From positions 233,521 to 297,520 of the forward strand of contig CAXXCL010000001.1 of assembly GCA_963668615.2 (NCBI GenBank): a stretch of 64,000 nt of DNA, written 5' to 3'. Made by a program: the position numbers and the translations under genes. This stretch comes from Paludibacteraceae bacterium. Its GTDB lineage: Bacteria > Bacteroidota > Bacteroidia > Bacteroidales > Paludibacteraceae. Positions 28,066-46,651 of this stretch are shown here, piece after piece. Numbering within the stretch: the stretch's first letter is position 1; every line of letters begins with the position of its first letter. Below the pieces are notes generated by a model. The model saw nothing but the letters and a program-made list of their open reading frames with translations. It did no database searches and had not been told where the DNA came from.

Positions 28066-28704
28066 ATGCAAAACATATTGCTTCCATCCGTTTATTTGGG
28101 TAATGTTCAATATTTTAGCAAGTTTATTCATTTTCCGATTATTCATATTGAACAACACTGTAATTACATAAAACAAACCTACCATAACCGGTGCAAAATA
28201 GCCACCGCAAATGGTGTAATGCAATTGTCAATTCCAACAGAGAAGTCAAAAACGGAAAAGTGTAAAATCAAAGATATTCGGATTGCCACGAACGAAAATT
28301 GGCAATTAATACATTGGAGAGCAATTGAAGCGGCTTATAATTCGAGCCCATTTTTTGAGTATTACAAAGACGATTTGTTGCCATTTTACACAAAAAAATA
28401 CGAATTTTTACTTGATTTTAACACCGAGATACAACAAGTCGTTTTAGAGCTGTTGGACATTGAGACAAAACCTTTATTAACAGCCGAATACGAACATATT
28501 GTAACAAAGAACGAAATTGATTTTAGGGAACAAATTTCTCCGAAAAAAGAAATTGTTGATAAGTCCTTTGTTTCACAGCCCTACTATCAGATTTTCGAAC
28601 ATAAATTTGGTTTTTTACCCAATTTAAGTGTTATAGATTTACTCTTCAACATGGGAAATGAATCTTTACTTGTACTAAAAAAATGTTGCTCCTATGAAAA
28701 ATAA
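28066..28704 (+). CDS. WbqC-family protein
   Basis: About 212-aa ORF with LPSVYLGNVQYFSKF, HWRAIEAAYNSSPFFEYY and SVIDLLFNMG. It occupies the dapB-lepB-wbqC context common in Bacteroidota. The start could be ATG 28066 or GTG 28063. Confidence 0.8.
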   Translation: MQNILLPSVYLGNVQYFSKFIHFPIIHIEQHCNYIKQTYHNRCKIATANGVMQLSIPTEKSKTEKCKIKDIRIATNENWQLIHWRAIEAAYNSSPFFEYYKDDLLPFYTKKYEFLLDFNTEIQQVVLELLDIETKPLLTAEYEHIVTKNEIDFREQISPKKEIVDKSFVSQPYYQIFEHKFGFLPNLSVIDLLFNMGNESLLVLKKCCSYEK

Positions 28705-30907
28705 AATTCTATTTTTAATAACATTTTGCATTAGCACACAATTGGTTTTCAGTCAGATACAGACGAATAGCGGGTCTCCTCTTCCCTTTCAAGGGGATAA
28801 TAATGTTGCTAAAAAATCTCTTTTGGAGAAAAATACATCTTCAGATTTCTTCCAGAAAATTCCTTTCGATAGCATCTCCCAAACAAACTCCGAGAAAAAC
28901 GGAAAATTCATTGTCGGCAAAAATTTTTCTGTTGATTATACACCCGAAAATTCAGGAACAACATTTATTACTGATGAGGGACAATTTGTTTGGCGTTTGG
29001 GCATTTACTCTCCGGGTGCGGCTGCTATCGGGTTGGTTTTTTCAGAGTTTGAAATTCCGGAGGAAGGAAAATTATTTATTTACAACCCTGACCAAACTAA
29101 TATTTTAGGAGCATTTACTAGCATTAACAATAACAGCAATAAGATTTTACCCATTTCTCCTCTTTCGGGAGACAGTATAATAATTGAATACCAAGAACCT
29201 TGGAAATCAAAACTGCAAGCACAACTAAAAATAGGAAAGGTAAGTCATAACACATTGGACATTGCTACTAAAAACGTTTTGGGAACAGGTACTTTTGGAG
29301 CATCAGAAGCATGCAGCACACATGCTGCTTTTGTCGAAAAAGCAAAAGATATACGTAGGGCAACGTGTTTGTTGTATGTTACAGGGAATACCTATACGTG
29401 GTTGGGCTCAGGGACACTTATCAATAATTCGGAAGGAAAGCCCTATTTACTCACAGCGGCACACAACGTAGACGAAACCGATTGCGAAAAAACAATTATT
29501 AGTTATTTTAACTATGAGGTACCTGTCATTGACTCGCTCATAAGAGGATCGCAAGAGTTTACCCTCGGCGGAGCAACATTGATAGCCAGGGCATTCAATA
29601 TCGACTTTGCCTTACTCGAATTAACTCAAATGCCACCTGTTGATTATCGTCCCTACCTAGCAGGATGGAATAGAGAAACAACTGTTCCTGCACCCCTTAT
29701 GGGAGTACAACACCCTGAAGGAGACATCAAACGAGTTTCTTTTGAGAATGACGTACCGGCAAATACGACTTACCCATATGAAGACTTGAAAGAAACGGTC
29801 TTAACCGACTCTCATTGGAAAATAAACAAATGGGATAAAGGGACAACGGAACCAGGTTCATCAGGTTCTGCTTTATTTGACAATGACAATTTAATTGTTG
29901 GAGGGCTTACCGGGGGAGAATCGGAATGCAGTAATCCTATTCTGGATTATTATTTTCGTCTTAATAAAGCATGGGATTATTATGCACTCTCGAGCAAACA
30001 ATTAAAATGCTGGTTGGATTCTGATAACAGCAATGTTACAAAAATGGTGGGCAAAGACCCTTACGAATCAAATCCTTGCGTACGCATTAATAACATAAAC
30101 GCCTCTGAAGAATTAGGGAAAGAATACATTGAAAATGGCAAAACAGGACTTTTATCAGGTCATAACGAATTACTATATACTGAATTTGCGGAAAAATTTG
30201 TTAGAGATACAAATAGTTATTTATATGGCGTTTATATTGTTCCTGCTATTGGAAAAAGAGATGTCAATTCCAAAGTATACGTCAAGGTCTATAATGGTAC
30301 GGATGCTCCTGCAAACTTATTAACCTCTGTGGAATTTAATCCGAAAGAAATGAAATACCGTGCAACAGGTTTTTATTACGATAACAAATCAACTTTCTTA
30401 GAAAAGGAAAACTACATTCGTTTTGAAAACCCGATATGTGTTGACAGCAGTTTTTTCGTATCCTACGAAATAACCTATGAAACCGTTGATTCGTTTGCAG
30501 TTTATATGGTAAACAACCGTAATATGAGTGTAACGAACACTGCTTATTATAAAAATGGAGACACGTGGAAACCGTTTACAGAACATCCCTATCGACCAAT
30601 ATCTACCTCGTTATGGATTGAGCCCGTATTGAAAAAAGACGATGGCACTTACATTTATGACCCACTGGCAGACGAAACCAGCACCGTTATTTACCCAAAT
30701 CCATGCAATGACCATGTTACGGTGCACAATGTTGATGCAAAAGCTCGAACATATAAAATGTACGATTTGCAAGGCAAATTAGTGTTGCAAACGACAGGCT
30801 CCTCTATTTCTGTGAATATAAATACAAATAGATTGCCTATAGGCATTTATTTCTTGCGTATTACATCCGACAATACTCACGAAACGCACAAAATAATAAA
30901 ACAATAA
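28694..30907 (+). CDS. Secreted trypsin-fold serine endopeptidase with T9SS C-terminal sorting domain
   Basis: 737-aa ORF with a signal peptide. The catalytic-triad contexts are LLTAAHNV (His), IDFALLEL (Asp) and GSSGSALF (Ser). The C-terminus is CTD-like: IYPNPCNDHVTVHN...LPIGIYFLRITSDNTHETHKIIKQ. Confidence 0.8.
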   Translation: MKNKILFLITFCISTQLVFSQIQTNSGSPLPFQGDNNVAKKSLLEKNTSSDFFQKIPFDSISQTNSEKNGKFIVGKNFSVDYTPENSGTTFITDEGQFVWRLGIYSPGAAAIGLVFSEFEIPEEGKLFIYNPDQTNILGAFTSINNNSNKILPISPLSGDSIIIEYQEPWKSKLQAQLKIGKVSHNTLDIATKNVLGTGTFGASEACSTHAAFVEKAKDIRRATCLLYVTGNTYTWLGSGTLINNSEGKPYLLTAAHNVDETDCEKTIISYFNYEVPVIDSLIRGSQEFTLGGATLIARAFNIDFALLELTQMPPVDYRPYLAGWNRETTVPAPLMGVQHPEGDIKRVSFENDVPANTTYPYEDLKETVLTDSHWKINKWDKGTTEPGSSGSALFDNDNLIVGGLTGGESECSNPILDYYFRLNKAWDYYALSSKQLKCWLDSDNSNVTKMVGKDPYESNPCVRINNINASEELGKEYIENGKTGLLSGHNELLYTEFAEKFVRDTNSYLYGVYIVPAIGKRDVNSKVYVKVYNGTDAPANLLTSVEFNPKEMKYRATGFYYDNKSTFLEKENYIRFENPICVDSSFFVSYEITYETVDSFAVYMVNNRNMSVTNTAYYKNGDTWKPFTEHPYRPISTSLWIEPVLKKDDGTYIYDPLADETSTVIYPNPCNDHVTVHNVDAKARTYKMYDLQGKLVLQTTGSSISVNINTNRLPIGIYFLRITSDNTHETHKIIKQ

Positions 30908-35477: not shown

Positions 35478-35521
35478 CTTCTGTTAAACAAGTCCTGAAA
35501 AATATTGCTTCTGTTAACAAA
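35478..35521 (+). repeat. Direct repeat CTTCTGTTAA(A)CAA x2, 30-nt register, overlapping the promoter of the toxin-like locus
   Basis: 35478-35491 is cttctgttaaacaa and 35508-35521 is cttctgttaacaaa. The second copy lies between the -33-like ATTG (35504-35507) and the -7 box (35528). Confidence 0.5.
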
Positions 35522-35527
35522 TGTGGC

Positions 35528-35535
35528 TACTTTTG
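35528..35535 (+). promoter_or_regulatory. Putative -7 box TACTTTTG driving the 35.5-41.8 kb locus
   Basis: Exact TAnnTTTG match with ATTG 20 nt upstream. It lies 36 nt before the ATG at 35571. Confidence 0.5.
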
Positions 35536-35570
35536 CTCTGCAATTAAAAAACACTTTAACACAAAATACA

Positions 35571-35784
35571 ATGAAAAAAATATTATTCTCGGTTTTTCTA
35601 TGTTGTAGCATCAACTTTTCATCTGTTGAATAACCTTATACAGGGTATAAAATTAGAGGAACGGACGTTGAGAGGTAGCCGTTGGTATAGGGAGAATTAT
35701 CAAGAAACGCTACCAAGCGGGCAGTACGTGTTACAAATGATAACGGAGACTGTTCGTGCAACCTATAAGCTGATTATACGATAG
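35571..35784 (+). pseudogene. Collapsed remnant of a T9SS cargo gene (signal peptide plus C-terminal sorting-domain tail in different frames)
   Basis: ATG 35571 gives MKKILFSVFLCCSINFSSVE then a stop. The +1 frame is open over 35575-35781 and ends ...ERTLRGSRWYRENYQETLPSGQYVLQMITETVRATYKLIIR then a stop, which resembles the last strands of a T9SS CTD. Confidence 0.55.
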
Positions 35785-35786
35785 AG

Positions 35787-38700
35787 ATGAGAATGACACA
35801 CAGACAACATACCATTTCGTTTAGGTTTATACTTTGCTTAACGGTATTCTTTTTTGCAAAGAGTATTTTTTTGCAAGCCCAGTTACGCAGTACCTATCCG
35901 GTACAGGTAAGTACGGTGGTGTTAAGTCCGGCACCTATCTATTTGGTAGATTATAGCGGAGGCGAGACGGACAAGCTATCCGTTACGTTGCTGAGTCGGG
36001 ATTTGAACCAATCGAGTTTGAAAGTTAAATTGCGACTTACCCTCAAATGTTCGATGGGACAGGAGTTGGTTACCAAGACCGAAGCCTATTTCGAGGCGAT
36101 AACCTTGGAACCGGGTGTGCCGTTGCGTTTGACCATGCAAGAGTTGGCACCGTATTTCAGGCAAGAAAATTTGAATAGTTACGGAAGCCTTTCGCAAGGG
36201 AAATTGCCGTTGGGCAGCACGCAGTTTTGTTTTGAGGCGGTGGAATATTATACCGGCAAAGTTCTTTCGACACAAAGTTGCGGTTCCACGTTTTTAGCTT
36301 TGCAGAAGCCTCCGCTTTTGGTACAACCGGCTGTTGGGAAAAAGCAATATGCAAGCGATAATTTGAATATACTTTTTCAGTGGTCGCCGCAACATTCTTT
36401 GGGAGTAGGTACGGTAGAATATGAGTTTACGCTGAAAGAAATAGAGGATAATACAGCTTCATTGGAAACGGCCTATAGCTATTCTCCTGTCATTTACAGC
36501 ACCACCACGGGAGCTACCGGTTTGGCGTATACAATGGCCAATCCGCCCCTGTCAGCCAATAAGAAATATGCCTGGAGCGTTCGAGCTTTTTTGCCCTTTT
36601 CAGCCAATGCAAGCAATATTCCCTTTGAAAATAATGGCAACAGTACCATTTCGTGGTTTCAAATGAAATCACCCTGCACGGCACCCACCAACGTACAAGC
36701 CGCCACATCGGATGATAAGTTGATATTGGAATGGACACCTTCGAGAGAATACAGCTCCTACGAAGTAAGCTACCGCCGTAGTGATTTTGACAAACAAACC
36801 TGGTACCAACAGCAAACACAAGACGCCACCATTACCTTGAAAGACCTTACCCCGGGACATACGTACCTTTATCGGGTAGGAGGCGTTTGTGAAGGACAAA
36901 CGGAAGTAACATACGGCAGCTCGGATAGCCTTGCCCTTCCTTTAAATGACAGCATTATTTTGGCACATTGCGGAGAAAAACCTTCAATAGAACTCTCCAA
37001 CCAAGAACCCAAAGAATCTTTGACACAGGGGGATAAGATTAAGGCAGGTGATTTTTCCGTTACCTTGACAAGCGTTAATGGAAGCCATGGCATTTTCAGT
37101 GGAGAAGGATATGCGGTTGTCCCTTTTGTGGGTAATTTGCCCTTAGCGGTACATTTTACGGGCATAGGCGTAAACACGGACAATCAGCTGATATCAGGGT
37201 TTATCGAAACAAAATATGATGCATCCAATTCGGGTATTGTAAGTACCGATGTTCTCTTTTATGGCGGAACGGCAACCGCCCAGGCAGGTATTATAAAGCC
37301 CGATGTAACGTTAGCGTTCAGCGTGTCGGAACAAACCCGGGTGCAGTACGACCCAGAGAGTCATACCTTGCTTTTTTATGATGCCACGGGAAATTTGATA
37401 GGAAGCGTAGAACCTTCGGGAGATGAATCCGATGTTTCTTTTCCTGTTATCATACAAGATAAAGACGGCAATACGTACGAGGTAGCTCCTGCCGATGGAG
37501 CCTCGTCTGCGGGCGGTACCACGCAAAAGTGTGTGCTTACCCCTTTGGGAAAACAAGGAGCCGCTTTGTCCGATAATGCCTTTAATTACAATACATTGGA
37601 TACGAATAAAGGCATGGTGACCTTTTTTGATGAGGGCGGAACATACAGTTTTGATACCTTTTTGCCGTATTACGATAATGTTTCTTTAATCCGTTATGCC
37701 AATGGTCAGGATGGCGATCGTCTTTATCCTAAACTTTCCGCTACCTATTATGTGCCCTGGAAGTTTATTCCAACAGGAAAGAAAGATAAAGTCAACGCTT
37801 CTGTCAGTTTGTCGGACAAGACCTTAGAGGCAACCAAAATTGTTTTTGAAACCAAGGAAGGCTTGGTTGTTCCGTCTGTATATGATGCCAAGAAAAAGGA
37901 ATTTGAACTTACCTTAACCGGCACCCAGGAGGGTAGCAGTCAGAGTGTTTATGCTCTATATCCATGCGGCAGCGATAAATATTACCAGTTGGGACAGTTG
38001 CGTACCGACTCCCACAGTACACAGACATACAAAGTGGTGTTGGTCAATGCAGGAGGCAGTTATCAAACCAATACCATTGGCAAAGAACTCAATGCCCTGT
38101 ACAACAAAATAGGCATTAATTGGGAAGTGGAAGAAGTTACGGATTTTAGTTACGACGCCGACCAAATAAAGAACCTGTTTGACAAAAACAGCGGCTTGTT
38201 GAGTGCCTATAACAGCGAAATGGTAAGTCTGAACAATGAGCTGAAAACCTTTTTGGGCAGCCGATACGATGCGACGGCTTGTTACGTGTTTATGGCAGAT
38301 AAGAATGCCGCAGGAAAGAAACGCGATGTGGTAGGTTTTATGCCCCGAGGCAGACAGTTTGCCTATATGTATGCGGGTGATATGGCAAAAGATGAAATCT
38401 CGGCAGCCATAGCCCATGAGCTGGCACATGGTAAGTTTAAGCTACGCCATACCTTTGATGCGTCGTATGGCTCCGACAGAAAAGAGGGCGAAAATCCTAC
38501 GAACCTGATGGACTACCGGGGTGGTACCCATATAGCCAAATGGCAATGGAGTCAGGTATATGACCCTGCTATTTTGAATGGCATCTTTGATAGCGACGAA
38601 GAGGGACAATTGGCTATCCTTGGGGGCATTACTTGGTTAGGCGACTTGTTTTGGGGTCTGGCTCCCGATGCACAAGAAAAAAGTATAGAAAAAGATATAT

Positions 38701-39806
38701 CTTTGTTTAACCATGTTTACCAAAAATATGACAGCTATTTTGCTGCTTCAACCACAAAAAATACGGCTATAGGTTTAACCGCTTATAAGAAATGGTCGGT
38801 AAGAAAAGAATCGCATGCACAAACGATATGTAAGAAAATATTTGAGAAATTAGTCAAAAAAGAAAACGAGCATTACACCCTGGTGTCAAAAGGGGTTTAT
38901 GTGGAAAAATACACCCTGGAAAACATACCTTACCGAATTGCTGTTTATAGTCCGAAAGGCTCTTTTGAATTGGATTACGACAAGATTCGTTTGGGCAGTA
39001 TCAGTGAATTGGCAGATTGCCAATACGTAAAAGCGGGATATACAAATACGTATGGTTTAATTTCGTTTTATAACGCCAAGCAAGAGTCGATTATGACCAT
39101 TCAAATAATGGGCGGCGAACCTGAAACAGCCATGTTGCGATGGTTAAATTACCTGGGTTTAGTGGTTGCTTCGGATAAACAAAAGGAGGCGGATAAGAAA
39201 AATGAAGAAAAACTGGATGCCGTAAATGTTAAAGTACATACTGAGGCGGATGTGAAGGATTATTGGGACGGGAAAGAAGAAAAAGGAATAAAAATAGCTT
39301 TAGACTCAATTGCTACCTATGTAGAAGCAACTGAATATAAGCAGGAAACAGGCTCTCTTCGTACTGGTAAAGATAAATTAGCATTAACTTATATGGATTG
39401 TACGGAGTTAGTAGCTCGATTTGTTCAGTTAGCTTGTGAACAAAAAGATGTCCAATCATTCTCCACATTAATGTTAGCTCCATATGCCAAAGAAAATGGA
39501 GTTTATGGAGGCTATTTAGAATTTGTATCGGGAAGTGCTTCTGAAAGTCATGTTGATATACGACCTGGAGATATTTTTATATGGAGGAGAAAATCGGATG
39601 GACATGTTGGTGTGGTAGAGTCTTACAAGGAACCATATGTCCATGTTATAGAAGCCTTGACAAGTGGATGTGAAGGAAGCCTGAATGTTGGCAGTTGCAA
39701 TCGGTGTGTAAGAAGATCAAAATATACACGGAATGGTAAGGCTTTATTTAAGCATGAGGGATGGAAAGGATATTTTAGAACTATAATTAAAAATGAGAAA
39801 AAATGA
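35787..39806 (+). CDS. Giant secreted modular protein: signal peptide, FN3-like module, HExxH zincin motif, C-terminal NlpC/P60-like Cys/His module (polymorphic-toxin-like)
   Basis: 1339-aa ORF. The signal peptide ends ..SIFLQAQ. The FN3-like segment (res about 297-375) reads CTAPTNVQAATSDDKLILEWTPS...YEVSYRR...LTPGHTYLYRV. HELAH lies at res 877-881 (nt 38415-38429), followed by NLMDY. The C-terminal motifs are MDC(1205)TELV, PGDIFIW, DGH(1273)VGVV and HVIEA. No T9SS CTD is present at the C-terminus. Confidence 0.8.
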   Translation: MRMTHRQHTISFRFILCLTVFFFAKSIFLQAQLRSTYPVQVSTVVLSPAPIYLVDYSGGETDKLSVTLLSRDLNQSSLKVKLRLTLKCSMGQELVTKTEAYFEAITLEPGVPLRLTMQELAPYFRQENLNSYGSLSQGKLPLGSTQFCFEAVEYYTGKVLSTQSCGSTFLALQKPPLLVQPAVGKKQYASDNLNILFQWSPQHSLGVGTVEYEFTLKEIEDNTASLETAYSYSPVIYSTTTGATGLAYTMANPPLSANKKYAWSVRAFLPFSANASNIPFENNGNSTISWFQMKSPCTAPTNVQAATSDDKLILEWTPSREYSSYEVSYRRSDFDKQTWYQQQTQDATITLKDLTPGHTYLYRVGGVCEGQTEVTYGSSDSLALPLNDSIILAHCGEKPSIELSNQEPKESLTQGDKIKAGDFSVTLTSVNGSHGIFSGEGYAVVPFVGNLPLAVHFTGIGVNTDNQLISGFIETKYDASNSGIVSTDVLFYGGTATAQAGIIKPDVTLAFSVSEQTRVQYDPESHTLLFYDATGNLIGSVEPSGDESDVSFPVIIQDKDGNTYEVAPADGASSAGGTTQKCVLTPLGKQGAALSDNAFNYNTLDTNKGMVTFFDEGGTYSFDTFLPYYDNVSLIRYANGQDGDRLYPKLSATYYVPWKFIPTGKKDKVNASVSLSDKTLEATKIVFETKEGLVVPSVYDAKKKEFELTLTGTQEGSSQSVYALYPCGSDKYYQLGQLRTDSHSTQTYKVVLVNAGGSYQTNTIGKELNALYNKIGINWEVEEVTDFSYDADQIKNLFDKNSGLLSAYNSEMVSLNNELKTFLGSRYDATACYVFMADKNAAGKKRDVVGFMPRGRQFAYMYAGDMAKDEISAAIAHELAHGKFKLRHTFDASYGSDRKEGENPTNLMDYRGGTHIAKWQWSQVYDPAILNGIFDSDEEGQLAILGGITWLGDLFWGLAPDAQEKSIEKDISLFNHVYQKYDSYFAASTTKNTAIGLTAYKKWSVRKESHAQTICKKIFEKLVKKENEHYTLVSKGVYVEKYTLENIPYRIAVYSPKGSFELDYDKIRLGSISELADCQYVKAGYTNTYGLISFYNAKQESIMTIQIMGGEPETAMLRWLNYLGLVVASDKQKEADKKNEEKLDAVNVKVHTEADVKDYWDGKEEKGIKIALDSIATYVEATEYKQETGSLRTGKDKLALTYMDCTELVARFVQLACEQKDVQSFSTLMLAPYAKENGVYGGYLEFVSGSASESHVDIRPGDIFIWRRKSDGHVGVVESYKEPYVHVIEALTSGCEGSLNVGSCNRCVRRSKYTRNGKALFKHEGWKGYFRTIIKNEKK

Positions 39807-40420
39807 GAAAAATAGTATTTATTTTATTTTTGGTGAGTTTCGCGGATTGTAGTTTAGCGAAACAACAAGAGACCAGTGCCGTTAATTTTTTTGATTTTTT
39901 TCTGTATGAGGAGGGTGTGTCACTCTCAGATTGTAAATTAAATGAAAAACCACTCAAAAAAATTCCTTTTATTTATTATGAATTTTATTGTGAAGATACA
40001 AATTTGAATGGGTCAGGGTGTTTTTTTGCTATACCAAAGGATACTTCAGTTTGGAAAATCAGCGATGAGGAAAATAAAAAAAATATAAAAAGGGAAGAAA
40101 AATATCAACAAACTCTTGCAAGAGAAAAAGAAGCAGTTCGTTTTTTGTTTTCTCAAAGGACGGTTCTTGCAAATAAATTTGATTTGTATGTATTTTATGT
40201 GCCTCAAAAATATATCAAGGTTCTTCCTGATGGGTTGTCGAAAGATGATGGCACTATTGCTGATTATTATTATGAATCTGATAATTCAATTATTTCGGTT
40301 TATCAATATAAGGATGGTGTATGGATAAAAAATGGTGAGTTTAAAAGTAAAGGTGAAACAACTAGAACAGCAGGAATGCTGTTTGCCGAAAAGTTGTTAA
40401 AGAAAAAGTTTTTTCAATGA
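39803..40420 (+). CDS. Secreted small protein, candidate cognate immunity protein
   Basis: 205-aa ORF whose ATG overlaps the upstream stop (ATGA at 39803-39806). It has an N-terminal signal peptide (MRKIVFILFLVSFADCSLAKQ), is AT-rich, and I do not recognise a family. Confidence 0.6.
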   Translation: MRKIVFILFLVSFADCSLAKQQETSAVNFFDFFLYEEGVSLSDCKLNEKPLKKIPFIYYEFYCEDTNLNGSGCFFAIPKDTSVWKISDEENKKNIKREEKYQQTLAREKEAVRFLFSQRTVLANKFDLYVFYVPQKYIKVLPDGLSKDDGTIADYYYESDNSIISVYQYKDGVWIKNGEFKSKGETTRTAGMLFAEKLLKKKFFQ

Positions 40421-41077
40421 AAAGACCCTTTGCTTTCGCACGAATCTTTTCGTGTGGAAGTGTTATAAAAGTAGGATATTTACAATGCAAAAAATAGATA
40501 TGGTTATGCCCACTATTGTGATTTATTTGTTGGATTTGATTGTGTAGATTTTAATGCATGTGCAACAAGTACACAAACAGTTAAGTGTAAACAAGGAACG
40601 CCAAATAAAAGCGAAGAAATCAAGAGTAAATACATTTGTACGCCTGATTTATTTGATTATGTTTACTCATGCTCTGCACGTTTAAAAGGTGGTAGATATG
40701 ATTTGGGAAATGGACCACCTACATCAAAGGATGGGTCAACATTTTTAGGACGTGGTTTTATTCAATTGACAGGCAAGTATAATTACAAAGAATTAAGCAA
40801 AGCCTGGAATGAAGATTCTGAGAATGCCAACAATAAAAAATATTTTCATATACAAACTAAAGATGGAGGACATATTGATGAGTTAGTAACTGACTTAGAT
40901 GTAGCTATGAAAGCGAGTATGTACTTTTGGAGATTAAAAGGATGTAATACGTATGCAGATAAGGATGATACAGCTGGGGTAACAAAAAAAGTTAAGGGGA
41001 CAGACAAGGATTTAAAAGAAATTATAAATAGAGGAAATATAAAAGACAAAGCATTAAAAGCATTAAAATTTAAATGA
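40421..41077 (+). pseudogene. Orphan GH19-family lysozyme/chitinase-like domain, 5'-truncated and interrupted
   Basis: One reading frame gives KDPLLSHESFRVEVL, stop (TAA 40466), K, stop (TAG 40472), then DIYNAKNRYGYAHYC...RYDLGNGPPTSKDGSTFLGRGFIQLTGKYNY...ASMYFWRLKGCNTYADKDD...VTKKVKG. No ATG precedes the track's TTG at 40703. GRGxIQLTG.NY and the xxWFW-like motif are GH19 signatures. Confidence 0.65.
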
Positions 41078-41820
41078 TTATGAAATTTAAACAACTACTA
41101 GCGATTGCGATTTTATCTACGAGTGTTTGTAATGCTCAAATAGTAAAATTATCAGATTTGAATGGCACTTGGGTTAGTGGTTTGAGAGAATCTAGTTTTA
41201 TTGTATTTGTAAAAGACACAATGGTAGGATTGGATTTTTTTAAACTTCCAGATGTTTATATTAATTATACAAAAGTTGGATTTGTTGATAAAAACAATCA
41301 AGATTTAATAAATATATATAGGAAGGAGTTTAATATGAATTCGAATTCTAATGAAGATATACGCATGGTAAATTTTGATGTTCCTGAAGACATGAAAATT
41401 GAAATTATGGATGAACAAATTAATGAAAATGATTATTTTTATTATGGAGGTACATTATGTAGTTTAGGTATTGACCCAGAGGATTTACCCTCTAAAGTAG
41501 GTTCTAGGTTTGAATTGATAAATTCTAATGTTTTTGTTTATATCAAAGTCGAGAGCTTGCCCAACGAGTATTTAAAGGCGTTGTATAAAAAAGGGAAAAA
41601 TGATAAAAAGGATTATCTAAAAGATTTCTTTAATATGGAATTTAAAGAAATCAAAGCAACAAAGTCCATTATTTATTCTACCCCCAACAAACCCACTAAA
41701 ATGTATCTTCTCAAGGGTGACGTAGTAGAAATATTGCAAGAAAAAGATGATTGGTTACAAATCAGGTATTATGGCAAGAAAACCATAGAAGGCTGGATAA
41801 AGAAGGGTGATGTGGAGTAA
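41074..41820 (+). CDS. Secreted protein with SH3b-like C-terminus, candidate immunity partner of the GH19-like remnant
   Basis: 248-aa ORF whose ATG overlaps the upstream stop (ATGA at 41074-41077). The signal peptide is MIMKFKQLLAIAILSTSVCNAQ. The C-terminal KGDVVEILQEKDDWLQIRYYGKKTIEGWIKKGDV is SH3-like. Confidence 0.6.
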   Translation: MIMKFKQLLAIAILSTSVCNAQIVKLSDLNGTWVSGLRESSFIVFVKDTMVGLDFFKLPDVYINYTKVGFVDKNNQDLINIYRKEFNMNSNSNEDIRMVNFDVPEDMKIEIMDEQINENDYFYYGGTLCSLGIDPEDLPSKVGSRFELINSNVFVYIKVESLPNEYLKALYKKGKNDKKDYLKDFFNMEFKEIKATKSIIYSTPNKPTKMYLLKGDVVEILQEKDDWLQIRYYGKKTIEGWIKKGDVE

Positions 41821-42044
41821 TGAAATAATGGATCAAAAGGAGAACTATTTGTATCAGAATCCCCGTCCAATGCGATTTAATTAATCCCATTACTCTATGT
41901 TATAAGAAATTGCATTTCGTAAAAGAACCAAATATATGGAAGAGGAAAATCAAAAAATAATTTATTTTCCCGTCAAGCAATATTTACCAATCCTGTTTTT
42001 TTTATTTTTGAAATGAATAACCAACATATTTCCAAATAAAGAGG

Positions 42045-44338: not shown

Positions 44339-46651
44339 ATGCAAAAATATATTCTTCTTTTTTATTTCTTTTTATCCATTTCTATTTCAGCTCAAGTTTC
44401 CGATAATTTCTTTGATAATGACTTCTCAAATAACCCCGAATGGAAAGGAAATGCAGAAAAGTTCATTATTAACACATCTCAACAATTACAACTCAATGCC
44501 ACAGCCGAAAACGGAACTGCCTATTTATCAACCTCCTCGCAAGTAACCAAAAACGCCTCCTGGGAATGCTTTGTAAAAATCGCATTTACACCAAGTTCAT
44601 CCAATCTGGCAAAAATTTATCTTATTTCCGACAAAGAAGACCTAACAGCCCCATTAAACGGTTATTATATTCTGATTGGAAACAACACAAAAGACATTAG
44701 CCTTTACCGACAAGAAGAAACAACCTCCACCAAAATTATTGATGGCACAGACAATCGATTAAATGGCTCTACCAATGAAGTTTTCATCAAGGCTACCCGT
44801 TCATCAACGGGCGAATGGAAGCTATCCTCAAAATTATTAACCGAAACAGAATACTACACAGAAGGATCGACAATTGACACAAAACTGGAAGCTTGTTATT
44901 TTTCAGGCATCGTGTGCAAATACACTTCAACACGCAGTACCGAATTTTATTTTGATGATTTTCTCATTTCGGGCGATTTATATGAACCACCTGTTTTGCC
45001 AACCTACAAAGCCATTCGCGGCGATATTGTTTTCAATGAATTAATGGTCAAACCAACCCCAACAGTTGGACTCCCCGACGCTGAATATATCGAATTATAC
45101 AATAATACAAACGAAGCTGTCAACCTCCAAAATTTCACGCTTAACGGATTTTCTAAAACCTGTACATTTCCTCTTTATGTTATTCAACCGAACAATTTTG
45201 TTATTGTCTGTAGCAAAACAGTTTTGCCATCAATGCAACAATTTGTCAATTGCATCGGGTTAGAAAATTTTCCTCCACTTAGCAATTCAAGTGGACTTTT
45301 ATCTCTCTATAATGCCGAAAATGAACTCATTTCTTGGGTAGAATACTCGGAAAATTGGCTCACTGACTCTTTCAAGAAGAATGGGGGCTGGAGCTTGGAA
45401 TGTATTGACCCGACAAATTTTATAGGCAATTCTTCCAATTGGAATTCAAGCCAAAATCCACAAGGAGGAACACCCAACGCCACAAACAGCATTCAAGCCA
45501 CAAATGAGGATGTAACGGAACCTATTATCAAAAACATTGATGTAATTGACAATCAGAATATTACATTATATTTCGACAAACCGATGAATACCTCTCTGCT
45601 ATCGGACATAAGCAAATATATTTTGAGCCCAATAACAAACCTCTCTCTAGCTACTTCTAACGCACCTCAAGGAAATACCGTAAGTCTCCAATTTGCTGAA
45701 AAACTGCAAGAAAACACGGTTTATACACTGCAAATACCTGAAATAAAAGATGTTAATGGCAACAAAACCGATAAAACATATCGAATAGCAATTCCGGAAG
45801 ATATCGAACCGAATGATATTATCATCAATGAAGTTTTATTCAATCCATATAGTAACGGCGTTGATTTTGTTGAAATATACAACCGTTCCGACAAAGTTTT
45901 GAACCTAAAACAATTGATGCTTGCCAATAAAAATAGTGATGGAAAATTAAATGCCTTTCCCGTAATTGCACCAAACGGATTTCTAATCTTTCCACAAGAT
46001 TATGTTGTTTTGACAACCGAAAAACAAGCCGTCTGCAATTTCTACACATGTCCTGAGAACGACCATTTTTTAGAAATAAATTCATTCCCTAGCTTCCCCG
46101 ACAATGAAGGAACTGTTGTACTTACCACCCTAACCGAAACCATCATTGACGAATTTTCTTATTCGGAAAAATTTCACCATGCACTAATTAATAACCCAGA
46201 AGGCGTTTCCTTGGAACGTATCAGTTTCAATCGTCCATCCAACGAAGCAAGCAATTGGCATTCTGGGTCTTTTAATACAAACTACGCGACTCCGGGCTAC
46301 AAAAACGCACATACCACCGAAAAATCGACATCCGACGCTGAAATCTGGTTATCTCCAAAAACATTTTCACCGGATAATGATGGACAGGAAGATATTTTGA
46401 CCATTAATTACAAATTTACAGCAGCAGGTTACATAGCGAACCTAACCATCTACGATGCAAACGGAAACAAAGTAAAACAACTGTACAACAATGCCCTATT
46501 AAGCGACGAAGGTTCCACCACATGGGACGGCACAGACGAACAATCAAAAGTTGCTCCGGTGGGTATTTATATTGCCTACTTCGAAGCATTTAAAACAGAT
46601 GGGTCTATAGTGAAAGAAAAAATGGCTTTTGTGCTTTCTGCAAAAAAATAA
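44339..46651 (+). CDS. Secreted lamin-tail-domain (LTD) protein with Ig-like C-terminal domain
   Basis: 770-aa ORF with a signal peptide and two LTD-like segments (IVFNELMVKP...AEYIELYNNTNEAVNL and IIINEVLFNP...VDFVEIYNRSDKVLNL). The C-terminal FSPDNDGQEDILTINY...LTIYDANGNKVKQL...WDGTDE...GIYIAYFEA resembles a FlgD-Ig or T9SS type-B CTD. Confidence 0.7.
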   Translation: MQKYILLFYFFLSISISAQVSDNFFDNDFSNNPEWKGNAEKFIINTSQQLQLNATAENGTAYLSTSSQVTKNASWECFVKIAFTPSSSNLAKIYLISDKEDLTAPLNGYYILIGNNTKDISLYRQEETTSTKIIDGTDNRLNGSTNEVFIKATRSSTGEWKLSSKLLTETEYYTEGSTIDTKLEACYFSGIVCKYTSTRSTEFYFDDFLISGDLYEPPVLPTYKAIRGDIVFNELMVKPTPTVGLPDAEYIELYNNTNEAVNLQNFTLNGFSKTCTFPLYVIQPNNFVIVCSKTVLPSMQQFVNCIGLENFPPLSNSSGLLSLYNAENELISWVEYSENWLTDSFKKNGGWSLECIDPTNFIGNSSNWNSSQNPQGGTPNATNSIQATNEDVTEPIIKNIDVIDNQNITLYFDKPMNTSLLSDISKYILSPITNLSLATSNAPQGNTVSLQFAEKLQENTVYTLQIPEIKDVNGNKTDKTYRIAIPEDIEPNDIIINEVLFNPYSNGVDFVEIYNRSDKVLNLKQLMLANKNSDGKLNAFPVIAPNGFLIFPQDYVVLTTEKQAVCNFYTCPENDHFLEINSFPSFPDNEGTVVLTTLTETIIDEFSYSEKFHHALINNPEGVSLERISFNRPSNEASNWHSGSFNTNYATPGYKNAHTTEKSTSDAEIWLSPKTFSPDNDGQEDILTINYKFTAAGYIANLTIYDANGNKVKQLYNNALLSDEGSTTWDGTDEQSKVAPVGIYIAYFEAFKTDGSIVKEKMAFVLSAKK

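Follow-up and report, generated by a model that had tools for sequence, protein, structure and literature searches.

What a bacterium might do with a giant exported protein that ends in a putative cell-wall hydrolase, with a small exported protein encoded directly behind it, and with a second, incomplete set of the same kind further downstream, is the question raised by four consecutive open reading frames (ORFs) in a 64,000-nucleotide stretch of the genome of a Paludibacteraceae bacterium (GenBank assembly GCA_963668615.2, contig CAXXCL010000001.1, positions 233,521 to 297,520 of the forward strand; the whole stretch is referred to as the window, and positions are those of the window). An original prediction, made from the letters of the window without database searches, had read the block as a polymorphic toxin with a C-terminal wall-cutting tip, a coupled exported partner and an orphan cassette, and every comparative test that was run supported this. 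Comparison with related loci makes it highly probable that the block is a cell-wall-targeting polymorphic toxin-immunity locus of a Bacteroidota bacterium, belonging to the TANFOR class (Jana, Salomon and Bosis, Life Sci Alliance 2020, PMC7073777). The ORF coordinates were taken from a mechanical ORF list of the window, signal peptides in the locus were judged by eye, and all parts of the locus lie on the + strand:

35787-39806, + strand: intact gene of 1339 amino acids (aa), predicted TANFOR-class polymorphic toxin
35787-35879, + strand: Sec-type signal peptide, about residues 1-31, ending in ...FLQA/QL
35898-36296, + strand: putative divergent TANFOR domain, residues 38-170
36681-36893, + strand: fn3 module, residues 299-369 (Pfam, E 1.4e-7)
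38064-38576, + strand: metzincin-like zinc peptidase domain, about residues 760-930
38607-39281, + strand: pre-toxin/linker region conserved at subfamily level, residues 941-1165, with a charged linker at its end
39282-39803, + strand: predicted papain-fold tip of the CHAP type (NlpC/P60 clan), residues 1166-1339
39803-40420, + strand: 205-aa ORF, exported, putative cognate immunity protein of the CHAP tip
40475-41077, + strand: orphan remnant of a tip of GH19-endolysin type, 5'-truncated, an open frame without ATG
41074-41820, + strand: 248-aa ORF, exported, with a C-terminal SH3_3 domain, putative immunity protein of the displaced GH19 tip

The four ORFs and both ATGA overlaps (ATG at 39803 against the stop at 39804-39806 for the 1339-aa and 205-aa ORFs; ATG at 41074 against the stop at 41075-41077 for the remnant and the 248-aa ORF) were present as first described, and so was the start-less state of the remnant, in which a TTG inside the frame, at 40703, is the sole start codon. 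The C-terminal papain-fold Cys/His module was found again too, as were HELAH and the FN3 module; profile searches of the ORFs and of the tip matched fn3, CHAP and SH3_3, and on the 1339-aa protein they did not match a TIGR04183-type C-terminal domain of the type IX secretion system (T9SS).

The conserved body of the 1339-aa protein

Thirty homologues were recovered from 5.8 billion proteins, and the part they have in common with the 1339-aa protein is approximately its first 70% (residues 1 to ~945). Several of them bear the names "TANFOR domain-containing protein" or "polymorphic toxin-type HINT domain-containing protein", and their C-termini carry ART, Endonuclea_NS_2, EndoU and PT-HINT domains. 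A single scan of species-representative genomes yielded 70 genomic loci with a related body, all of them in Bacteroidota (Paludibacteraceae, Dysgonomonas, Cyclobacteriaceae, Ohtaekwangia, Saprospiraceae and others), and in almost all of these the match stops at residue 935-971 of the query.

The curated TANFOR model TIGR02542 matches 10 of the 26 aligned homologues at E up to 0.01, covering, for instance, residues 28-157 of P0015, 26-163 of P0019 and 43-175 of P0022; over residues 1 to ~945, the window protein matches these three with E between 1e-87 and 1e-100. A profile built from their TIGR02542-matched regions aligned with residues 38-170 of the query (E 3e-27); when 24 homologues were used for the profile instead, E was 1e-44 for the same residues. 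From these profile matches, the N-terminus (residues 38-170) is assigned as a divergent TANFOR domain that directly follows the signal peptide, as it does in accepted members of the class. The family consensus after the signal region retains the motif 'AQxYPVQ'.

The fn3 module was matched in 24 of the 26 homologues. A model of the body was computed with AlphaFold2 (AF2) from 25 sequences (predicted local distance difference test, pLDDT, 77.6) and comprises a lone N-terminal helix at residues 4-32, which fits the signal peptide, followed by beta-sandwich modules to about residue 756 and an alpha/beta domain at about 760-930. The beta-sandwich stalk (about residues 171-756) encloses the fn3 module, and a Foldseek search with the 955-residue body returned only tandem FN3 arrays at the top, with no separate match for the metzincin-like domain. 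Comparison across the family shows the following layout of the protein: a TANFOR domain, an FN3/Ig-like stalk, a conserved HExxH domain of metzincin-like type, then a linker and, at the C-terminus, a tip that can be replaced.

The original prediction had found no recognisable delivery machinery in the locus. In Pfam and NCBIfam searches at E up to 0.1, the 1339-aa protein indeed gave no match to Rhs/YD, two-partner secretion (TPS) or FHA repeats, MafB-N, LXG, CdiB, VENN or PAAR, and none to a T9SS C-terminal domain (Por_Secre_tail or CHU_C); what the original prediction had missed is the class marker itself, the putative divergent TANFOR domain, which, followed by FN3, counts as a recognisable module for trafficking.

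Tips, partners and the orphan cassette

The observation that carries the interpretation is that near-identical bodies bear three different tips. In a protein from another assembly (P0001), residues 3-1165 are 98% identical to those of the window protein and the last 173 residues are unrelated. In a metagenome contig (L074), the only hit of a metagenome scan for the sister-strain locus, 66 of 68 nucleotides (nt) match window positions 39129-39197, after which the sequences diverge abruptly; the tip encoded there resembles GH19 endolysins (PDB 9ms7, E 6e-11) and is followed by a 279-aa signal-peptide protein, whose SH3-like tail is shared with the 248-aa ORF of the window. Two recombination breakpoints are thereby seen in the linker, one near nt 39198 and the other near nt 39281. 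For the tip of P0001, neither Pfam nor a PDB sequence search assigned a family; a guess that it is a LAS/M15-type peptidase, prompted by a 'SAHS..D...H.E' pattern, found no support from either source.

The same holds at larger distance. In a full-length alignment with 26 homologues, the mean column identity is 22%, with 44 invariant columns that all fall within residues 38-921, whereas the tails after the HExxH domain in 52 loci have a mean column identity of 8% and no invariant column. Domains matched in these 52 tails include AHH, WHH, Toxin-deaminase, ADPrib_exo_Tox, Ntox46, GH19, Peptidase_C39_2, DUF5675, PT-HINT and others, and a coupled 3' ORF (same strand, at least 80 aa, start between -30 and +150 nt from the stop) is present in 47 of 53 related loci. 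An invariant C-terminus across orthologous loci was the outcome that the original prediction had named as speaking against it; P0001, L074 and the 52 loci together give the opposite.

The tip of the window protein matches Pfam CHAP (PF05257) at residues 1202-1289 with 26.1 bits when the whole protein is searched and 30 bits (E 7e-7) when the tip is isolated, against a cut-off of 26. Its catalytic-type residues are Cys1205 (in MDCTE; MDCTEL is encoded at nt 39393-39410), His1273 (in DGHVGVV) and Glu1289 (in VIEA). An exhaustive HMMER search collected 135 cluster representatives of the tip, placed at the extreme C-terminus in nearly all cases, in proteins of ~100-1600 aa; an alignment of this family shows no variation in the D-C and G-H columns, and at least 90% of the sequences retain the Glu. 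CHAP was matched in 25 of the 27 long members, among them P0059, in which the tip is 63% identical to that of the window and fn3 is also present. Five of the 27 carry DUF4280, which we take to be a PAAR-like domain of type VI effectors. Judged by its family membership, the tip in this strain would be a CHAP-type cysteine amidase/endopeptidase that cuts the peptide stems of peptidoglycan. A comparison with PDB sequences gave no match for the tip.

The 205-aa protein falls into no Pfam or NCBIfam family. Its pairing with the tip recurs in two short contigs, L072 and L073, which encode close homologues of the CHAP tip (59% and 45% identity) and, in the gene that follows, relatives of the 205-aa ORF (30% identity, E 4e-27, and 25% identity, E 9e-8, respectively). 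Toxin-immunity pairs are marked by co-variation of this kind, and on the strength of this conserved pairing the 205-aa protein is proposed as the cognate immunity protein of the CHAP tip, which in the periplasm would shield both the producer during export and its kin.

These comparisons bear on the possibility that the locus serves housekeeping or surface remodelling, with a cell-surface FN3 adhesin and metalloprotease whose wall hydrolase helps the cell itself to grow or divide, and with accessory proteins beside it. Autolysins and surface proteins also have features seen here (signal peptide, FN3 stalk, protease-like domain and CHAP), and the locus does lie among housekeeping genes. A conserved housekeeping role does not fit, however, with a C-terminus that is swapped outright between near-identical bodies and hypervariable in 52 loci, nucleases and deaminases included, nor with a partner that co-varies with the tip; the comparison of alleles largely refutes this explanation, and we give it next to no weight.

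The start-less remnant had been described as related to GH19 lysozymes and chitinases. The GH19 kinship stands, with a shift of branch: Pfam GH19 itself matches the remnant weakly and below its cut-off (E 0.003-0.009), and a profile of the remnant's family matches GH19-type endolysins in the PDB with E between 1e-41 and 1e-22 and plant chitinases with 1e-9 or weaker. By this far stronger match to endolysins, the remnant is placed in the GH19 endolysin branch, as kin of peptidoglycan hydrolases, and peptidoglycan would be the substrate of its family. Homologues 60-93% identical to it extend N-terminally through 'AHFLGQIGTETGG...KEIPCY' (with 'ETGG' and 'KEIPCY'), a stretch that the window copy has lost. 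As we take this stretch to hold both GH19 catalytic glutamates, the window copy is presumably an inactive, truncated fragment.

In five loci (L016, L019, L044, L047 and L052), TANFOR-type ORFs end C-terminally in the same GH19 domain, and all five GH19-tailed loci have signal-peptide partners. The next gene in L019, L044, L047 and L070 has a match to the window's 248-aa ORF over residues 143-248 of the latter; in a Cellulophaga locus (L076), the gene that follows the GH19 tip shows 57% identity to residues 141-248. This C-terminal region of the 248-aa ORF contains SH3_3 (Pfam, E 4e-6), and its SH3-like terminal ~60-110 residues retain 48-77% identity across distant loci, with unrelated N-terminal halves (sites compared: window 41494-41817, residues 141-248; L077:761-1726; L076:2849-3520; L074:793-1629). 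This suggests that the immunity proteins are modular, with a common tail that may bind the wall or anchor them.

The GH19 fragment and the 248-aa ORF would accordingly represent a former tip and its immunity gene: a CHAP/immunity cassette would have recombined into the locus and replaced the GH19 tip, of which the 3' part and the immunity gene remained. The retained 248-aa protein could still protect against relatives that carry a GH19 tip.

Of the three tips on this body, two are assigned as wall hydrolases (CHAP in the window and GH19 in L074), as is the displaced tip in the remnant. The protein could also be a secreted bacteriolytic enzyme, directed against bacteria with an exposed wall such as Gram-positive neighbours or used for foraging, rather than a weapon that works on kin by contact; its partners would then only shield the producer's own wall during passage through the periplasm. 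Both the CHAP and the GH19 tips are similar to endolysins by which phages attack Gram-positive walls from the outside, and no outer-membrane translocation module for entry into a target is evident in Pfam or NCBIfam. Yet the CHAP tip family is also found on the PAAR-like DUF4280 carriers linked to type VI secretion, the wider TANFOR family includes nucleases, deaminases and ADP-ribosyltransferases that need to enter the target cell, and a kept orphan immunity gene fits kin defence better than self-protection during export alone. We consider such a lytic enzyme an unlikely explanation, although the least unlikely of those that compete with a polymorphic toxin.

Two further occurrences of GH19-like tips were observed. 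A 477-kb JGI metagenome contig (L075:1-9000) contains a 1984-aa gene, behind which at least ten small to medium ORFs are lined up on the same strand, among them a homologue of the GH19-like tip, before transposase genes follow; this looks like a long orphan toxin/immunity array. In L077, a GH19-tip homologue (P0039, 69% identity) adjoins an SH3-tailed protein in an assembly labelled as the ciliate Halteria grandinella; a contaminating or symbiotic bacterium is a likelier source of this gene than the eukaryote.

Release, export and the weight of the evidence

The metzincin-like domain stands exactly at the border between conserved body and variable tail in all 26 aligned homologues, across which A876, H877, E878, H881, H888 and M908 are invariant. 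HELAH is encoded at nt 38415-38429, H888 provides the third histidine and M908 the invariant methionine; the resulting HExxHx6H spacing has one residue more than the classic metzincin motif. On the isolated region, Reprolysin_5 matched below threshold (E 6e-4), and Reprolysin_5/4 and metzin_BF0631 matched several homologues, the latter weakly in three (best E 0.0014). As the domain is located just where conservation ends, it is probably a processing peptidase or one that releases the tip, by analogy with other polymorphic toxins, on which releasing peptidases are known, often just before the tip (Zhang et al. 2012, PMC3482391). Jana, Salomon and Bosis (PMC7073777) make no mention of such a domain in their main text. 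The linker that follows (residues 941-1165) was found, with 32-45% identity, in L005, L025 and L032 only.

The 1339-aa protein would cross the inner membrane by means of its Sec signal peptide. For the outer membrane, the sole published proposal is the T9SS: T9SS substrates are enriched near TANFOR genes, and export by this system was put forward as a hypothesis (PMC7073777); no export route of TANFOR toxins was reported in later papers among the literature searched. Two predicted T9SS substrates flank the locus within ~5 kb:

28694-30907: trypsin-like protease with Por_Secre_tail (type A signal), E 1e-14
44339-46651: Lamin-tail/Big_5 protein with CHU_C (type B signal), E 2e-8

Going by these Por_Secre_tail and CHU_C proteins in the window, the genome makes T9SS substrates, which implies a T9SS; the toxin itself is predicted to be devoid of a T9SS C-terminal signal. 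T9SS core genes did not turn up in the 64 kb, where no search was aimed at them.

A second lead on export is a conserved, unannotated gene of ~575 aa, likewise without mention in the text of the 2020 paper, which lies 5' of the TANFOR-type gene in 27 of the 36 loci with enough upstream sequence (29 loci in all), usually at -20 to +76 nt from the toxin gene and sometimes with a large protein (500-1400 aa) in between (examples: L015:8289-9962; L045:8252-9982; L003:5484-7124; L021:8251-9972). The ~575-aa proteins have a mutual identity of 31-63%, a signal peptide and, for the most part, an ending of the type '...G[YT].Y.F' or '...YSYSF'. No Pfam or PDB sequence match was obtained for the family, and in NCBIfam there were only stray weak matches to unrelated families. 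Going only by the signal peptide and the '...YSYSF'-type ending, which is like a beta-signal, the protein may be outer-membrane barrel-like, and it is a candidate for a dedicated outer-membrane partner of the toxin.

Several points weigh against the assignment of the block to a working, wall-targeting TANFOR locus. The ~575-aa gene is absent from the 64-kb window (best profile E 0.78), and should export require it, toxin delivery from this locus may fail or may rely on a copy encoded elsewhere. TIGR02542 has no direct match to the 1339-aa protein (E up to 0.1) or to its residues 1-238 (E up to 10), so that TANFOR membership is a matter of transitive homology; even homologues to which NCBI or JGI gave the name TANFOR reach just 34-41 bits on this model, below its cut-off of 67 bits, which indicates that it is insensitive for this branch. 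The CHAP assignment of the tip comes from sequence profiles only. An AF2 model of the tip, computed from three sequences, was weak (pLDDT 63.6) because the alignment took in only two homologues, and a Foldseek search with it returned nothing at E up to 0.001; its best matches, which are suggestive, were the C39 domain of PCAT1 and the CHAP endolysin PlyGRCS (prob 0.87-0.96, TM 0.38-0.51). Finally, the replacement of the GH19 tip is a reconstructed history, and the DNA repeats found between the main gene and the orphan cassette were only short AT-rich chance matches.

The first of these points could also mean that the locus is decaying, with an intact toxin gene that has lost its conserved ~575-aa partner and from which nothing is delivered any more. 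This would agree with the frequency of that gene elsewhere (27 of 36 loci, directly or behind one gene) and its absence here, with a 430-nt spacer 5' of the toxin gene whose sole ORF has 20 signal-peptide-like codons, and with the truncated tip remnant as a trace of past rearrangement at the locus. The 1339-aa frame is unbroken, however, and retains HExxH, the CHAP Cys/His/Glu and the other invariant residues; the sister strain has a body 98% identical; the nearest relatives (L001, L002 and L005) likewise have no ~575-aa gene beside the toxin, yet intact toxins and coupled partners; and the gene could lie beyond the 64-kb window. Decay of this kind appears improbable, more so than a lytic enzyme.

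For the functional toxin that we favour, a more specific scheme can be formulated. TANFOR toxins may form a self-contained and so far undefined export-and-release system, in which the barrel-like ~575-aa protein would take the toxin across the outer membrane or anchor it there, much as in two-partner secretion, and the metzincin-like domain would free the tip; the sub-lineage of the window, together with L001, L002 and L005, would have lost or moved the barrel gene and would need another route or a copy in trans. This scheme is offered tentatively, and we consider it unlikely.

The block had been credited with a promoter of its own. A TAnnTTTG match, the Bacteroidetes -7 motif, is present at 35528-35535 on the + strand (TACTTTTG), 259 nt 5' of the ATG of the 1339-aa ORF; as the motif is common in the window (112 copies against ~92 expected), a single copy is weak evidence of a promoter, and this part of the original prediction is only plausible. 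Between the match and the ATG, the 259-nt leader contains the 20-codon ORF at 35573-35635 (MKKILFSVFLCCSINFSSVE and a stop). Directly after it, the segment 35640-35786 is more GC-rich by eye. This segment (frame 3, ending in '...ETLPSGQYVLQMITETVRATYKLIIR' and a stop) was suspected to be the remnant of a T9SS C-terminal domain or of an upstream gene; neither tblastn against all loci nor Pfam at E up to 1 gave a significant match, it had no significant likeness to the large upstream proteins of L001, L002, L005 and others, and the idea was dropped. Further TAnnTTTG matches lie within the GH19 remnant, at 40631-40638 and at 40922-40929, the latter 145 nt 5' of the ATG of the 248-aa ORF. They could provide the orphan immunity gene with a promoter of its own, the motif being too frequent to count by itself.

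The GC content is 43-47% in the toxin body and 26-34% in the tips and partners, against a background of ~33-35% in the flanks and the genome; this pattern is a mosaic signature. The contrast is sharp within what is one transcription unit (36000-38500 against 39500-41900).

What makes the locus useful is that it offers a clean, naturally polymorphic example, with three tips on one body and mapped breakpoints, in a class for which knowledge has so far come mostly from bioinformatics and a single DNase. To the toxin/immunity catalogues used in microbiome profiling, it would add a pair that lacks annotation, the CHAP tip and its putative immunity protein, as well as a family of SH3-tailed putative immunity proteins that go with GH19 tips. 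It also gives two leads on how TANFOR toxins may exit the producer and enter the target, namely the invariant metzincin-like domain and the conserved upstream gene of outer-membrane-like type.

Comparison with known systems

Amidase and muramidase effectors of type VI secretion systems (T6SS), which have papain-like or lysozyme-like folds, attack peptidoglycan in the periplasm of the target and are neutralised by exported, periplasmic immunity proteins (the Tae/Tai and Tge/Tgi pairs). The window locus resembles them in its combination of predicted wall-attacking enzymes with exported, putative immunity proteins, and kin of its CHAP tip are found on PAAR-like DUF4280 carriers. It differs in the Sec signal peptide of the toxin, which T6SS effectors normally do not have. 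No T6SS genes were found around the locus in the window, and the tip had no sequence match to solved T6SS effectors.

With the Rhs and contact-dependent inhibition (CDI; CdiA) systems, the locus shares a conserved body, sharp breakpoints, a replaceable tip and a coupled putative immunity gene, as well as a displaced, 5'-truncated orphan tip that retains its putative immunity gene. These features belong to the general polymorphic-toxin framework, which includes an NlpC/P60 toxin class (Zhang et al. 2012, PMC3482391) and in whose text the term TANFOR has zero occurrences. The body in the window, with its TANFOR, FN3 and metzincin-like parts, is of another family than those of Rhs and CDI.

The original prediction had been unsure whether such an architecture had been described. 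It is already published, as the TANFOR class of 2020: 339 proteins, confined to Bacteroidota and 87% of them with Sec signals, with tips that comprise nucleases, peptidoglycan hydrolases and ADP-ribosyltransferases and with immunity genes downstream (PMC7073777). The example tested there was a DNase, BaCT, and not a wall hydrolase. CHAP or GH19 tips and orphan cassettes are not mentioned in the main text of that paper, and among the matches listed from its supplement none gives CHAP or GH19 to a TANFOR protein. The window locus differs from the class in a TANFOR domain too divergent for direct detection by TIGR02542, and it agrees with it in the signal peptide followed by TANFOR and Fn3, the long body, the polymorphic tip, the adjoining downstream gene and the T9SS substrates nearby.

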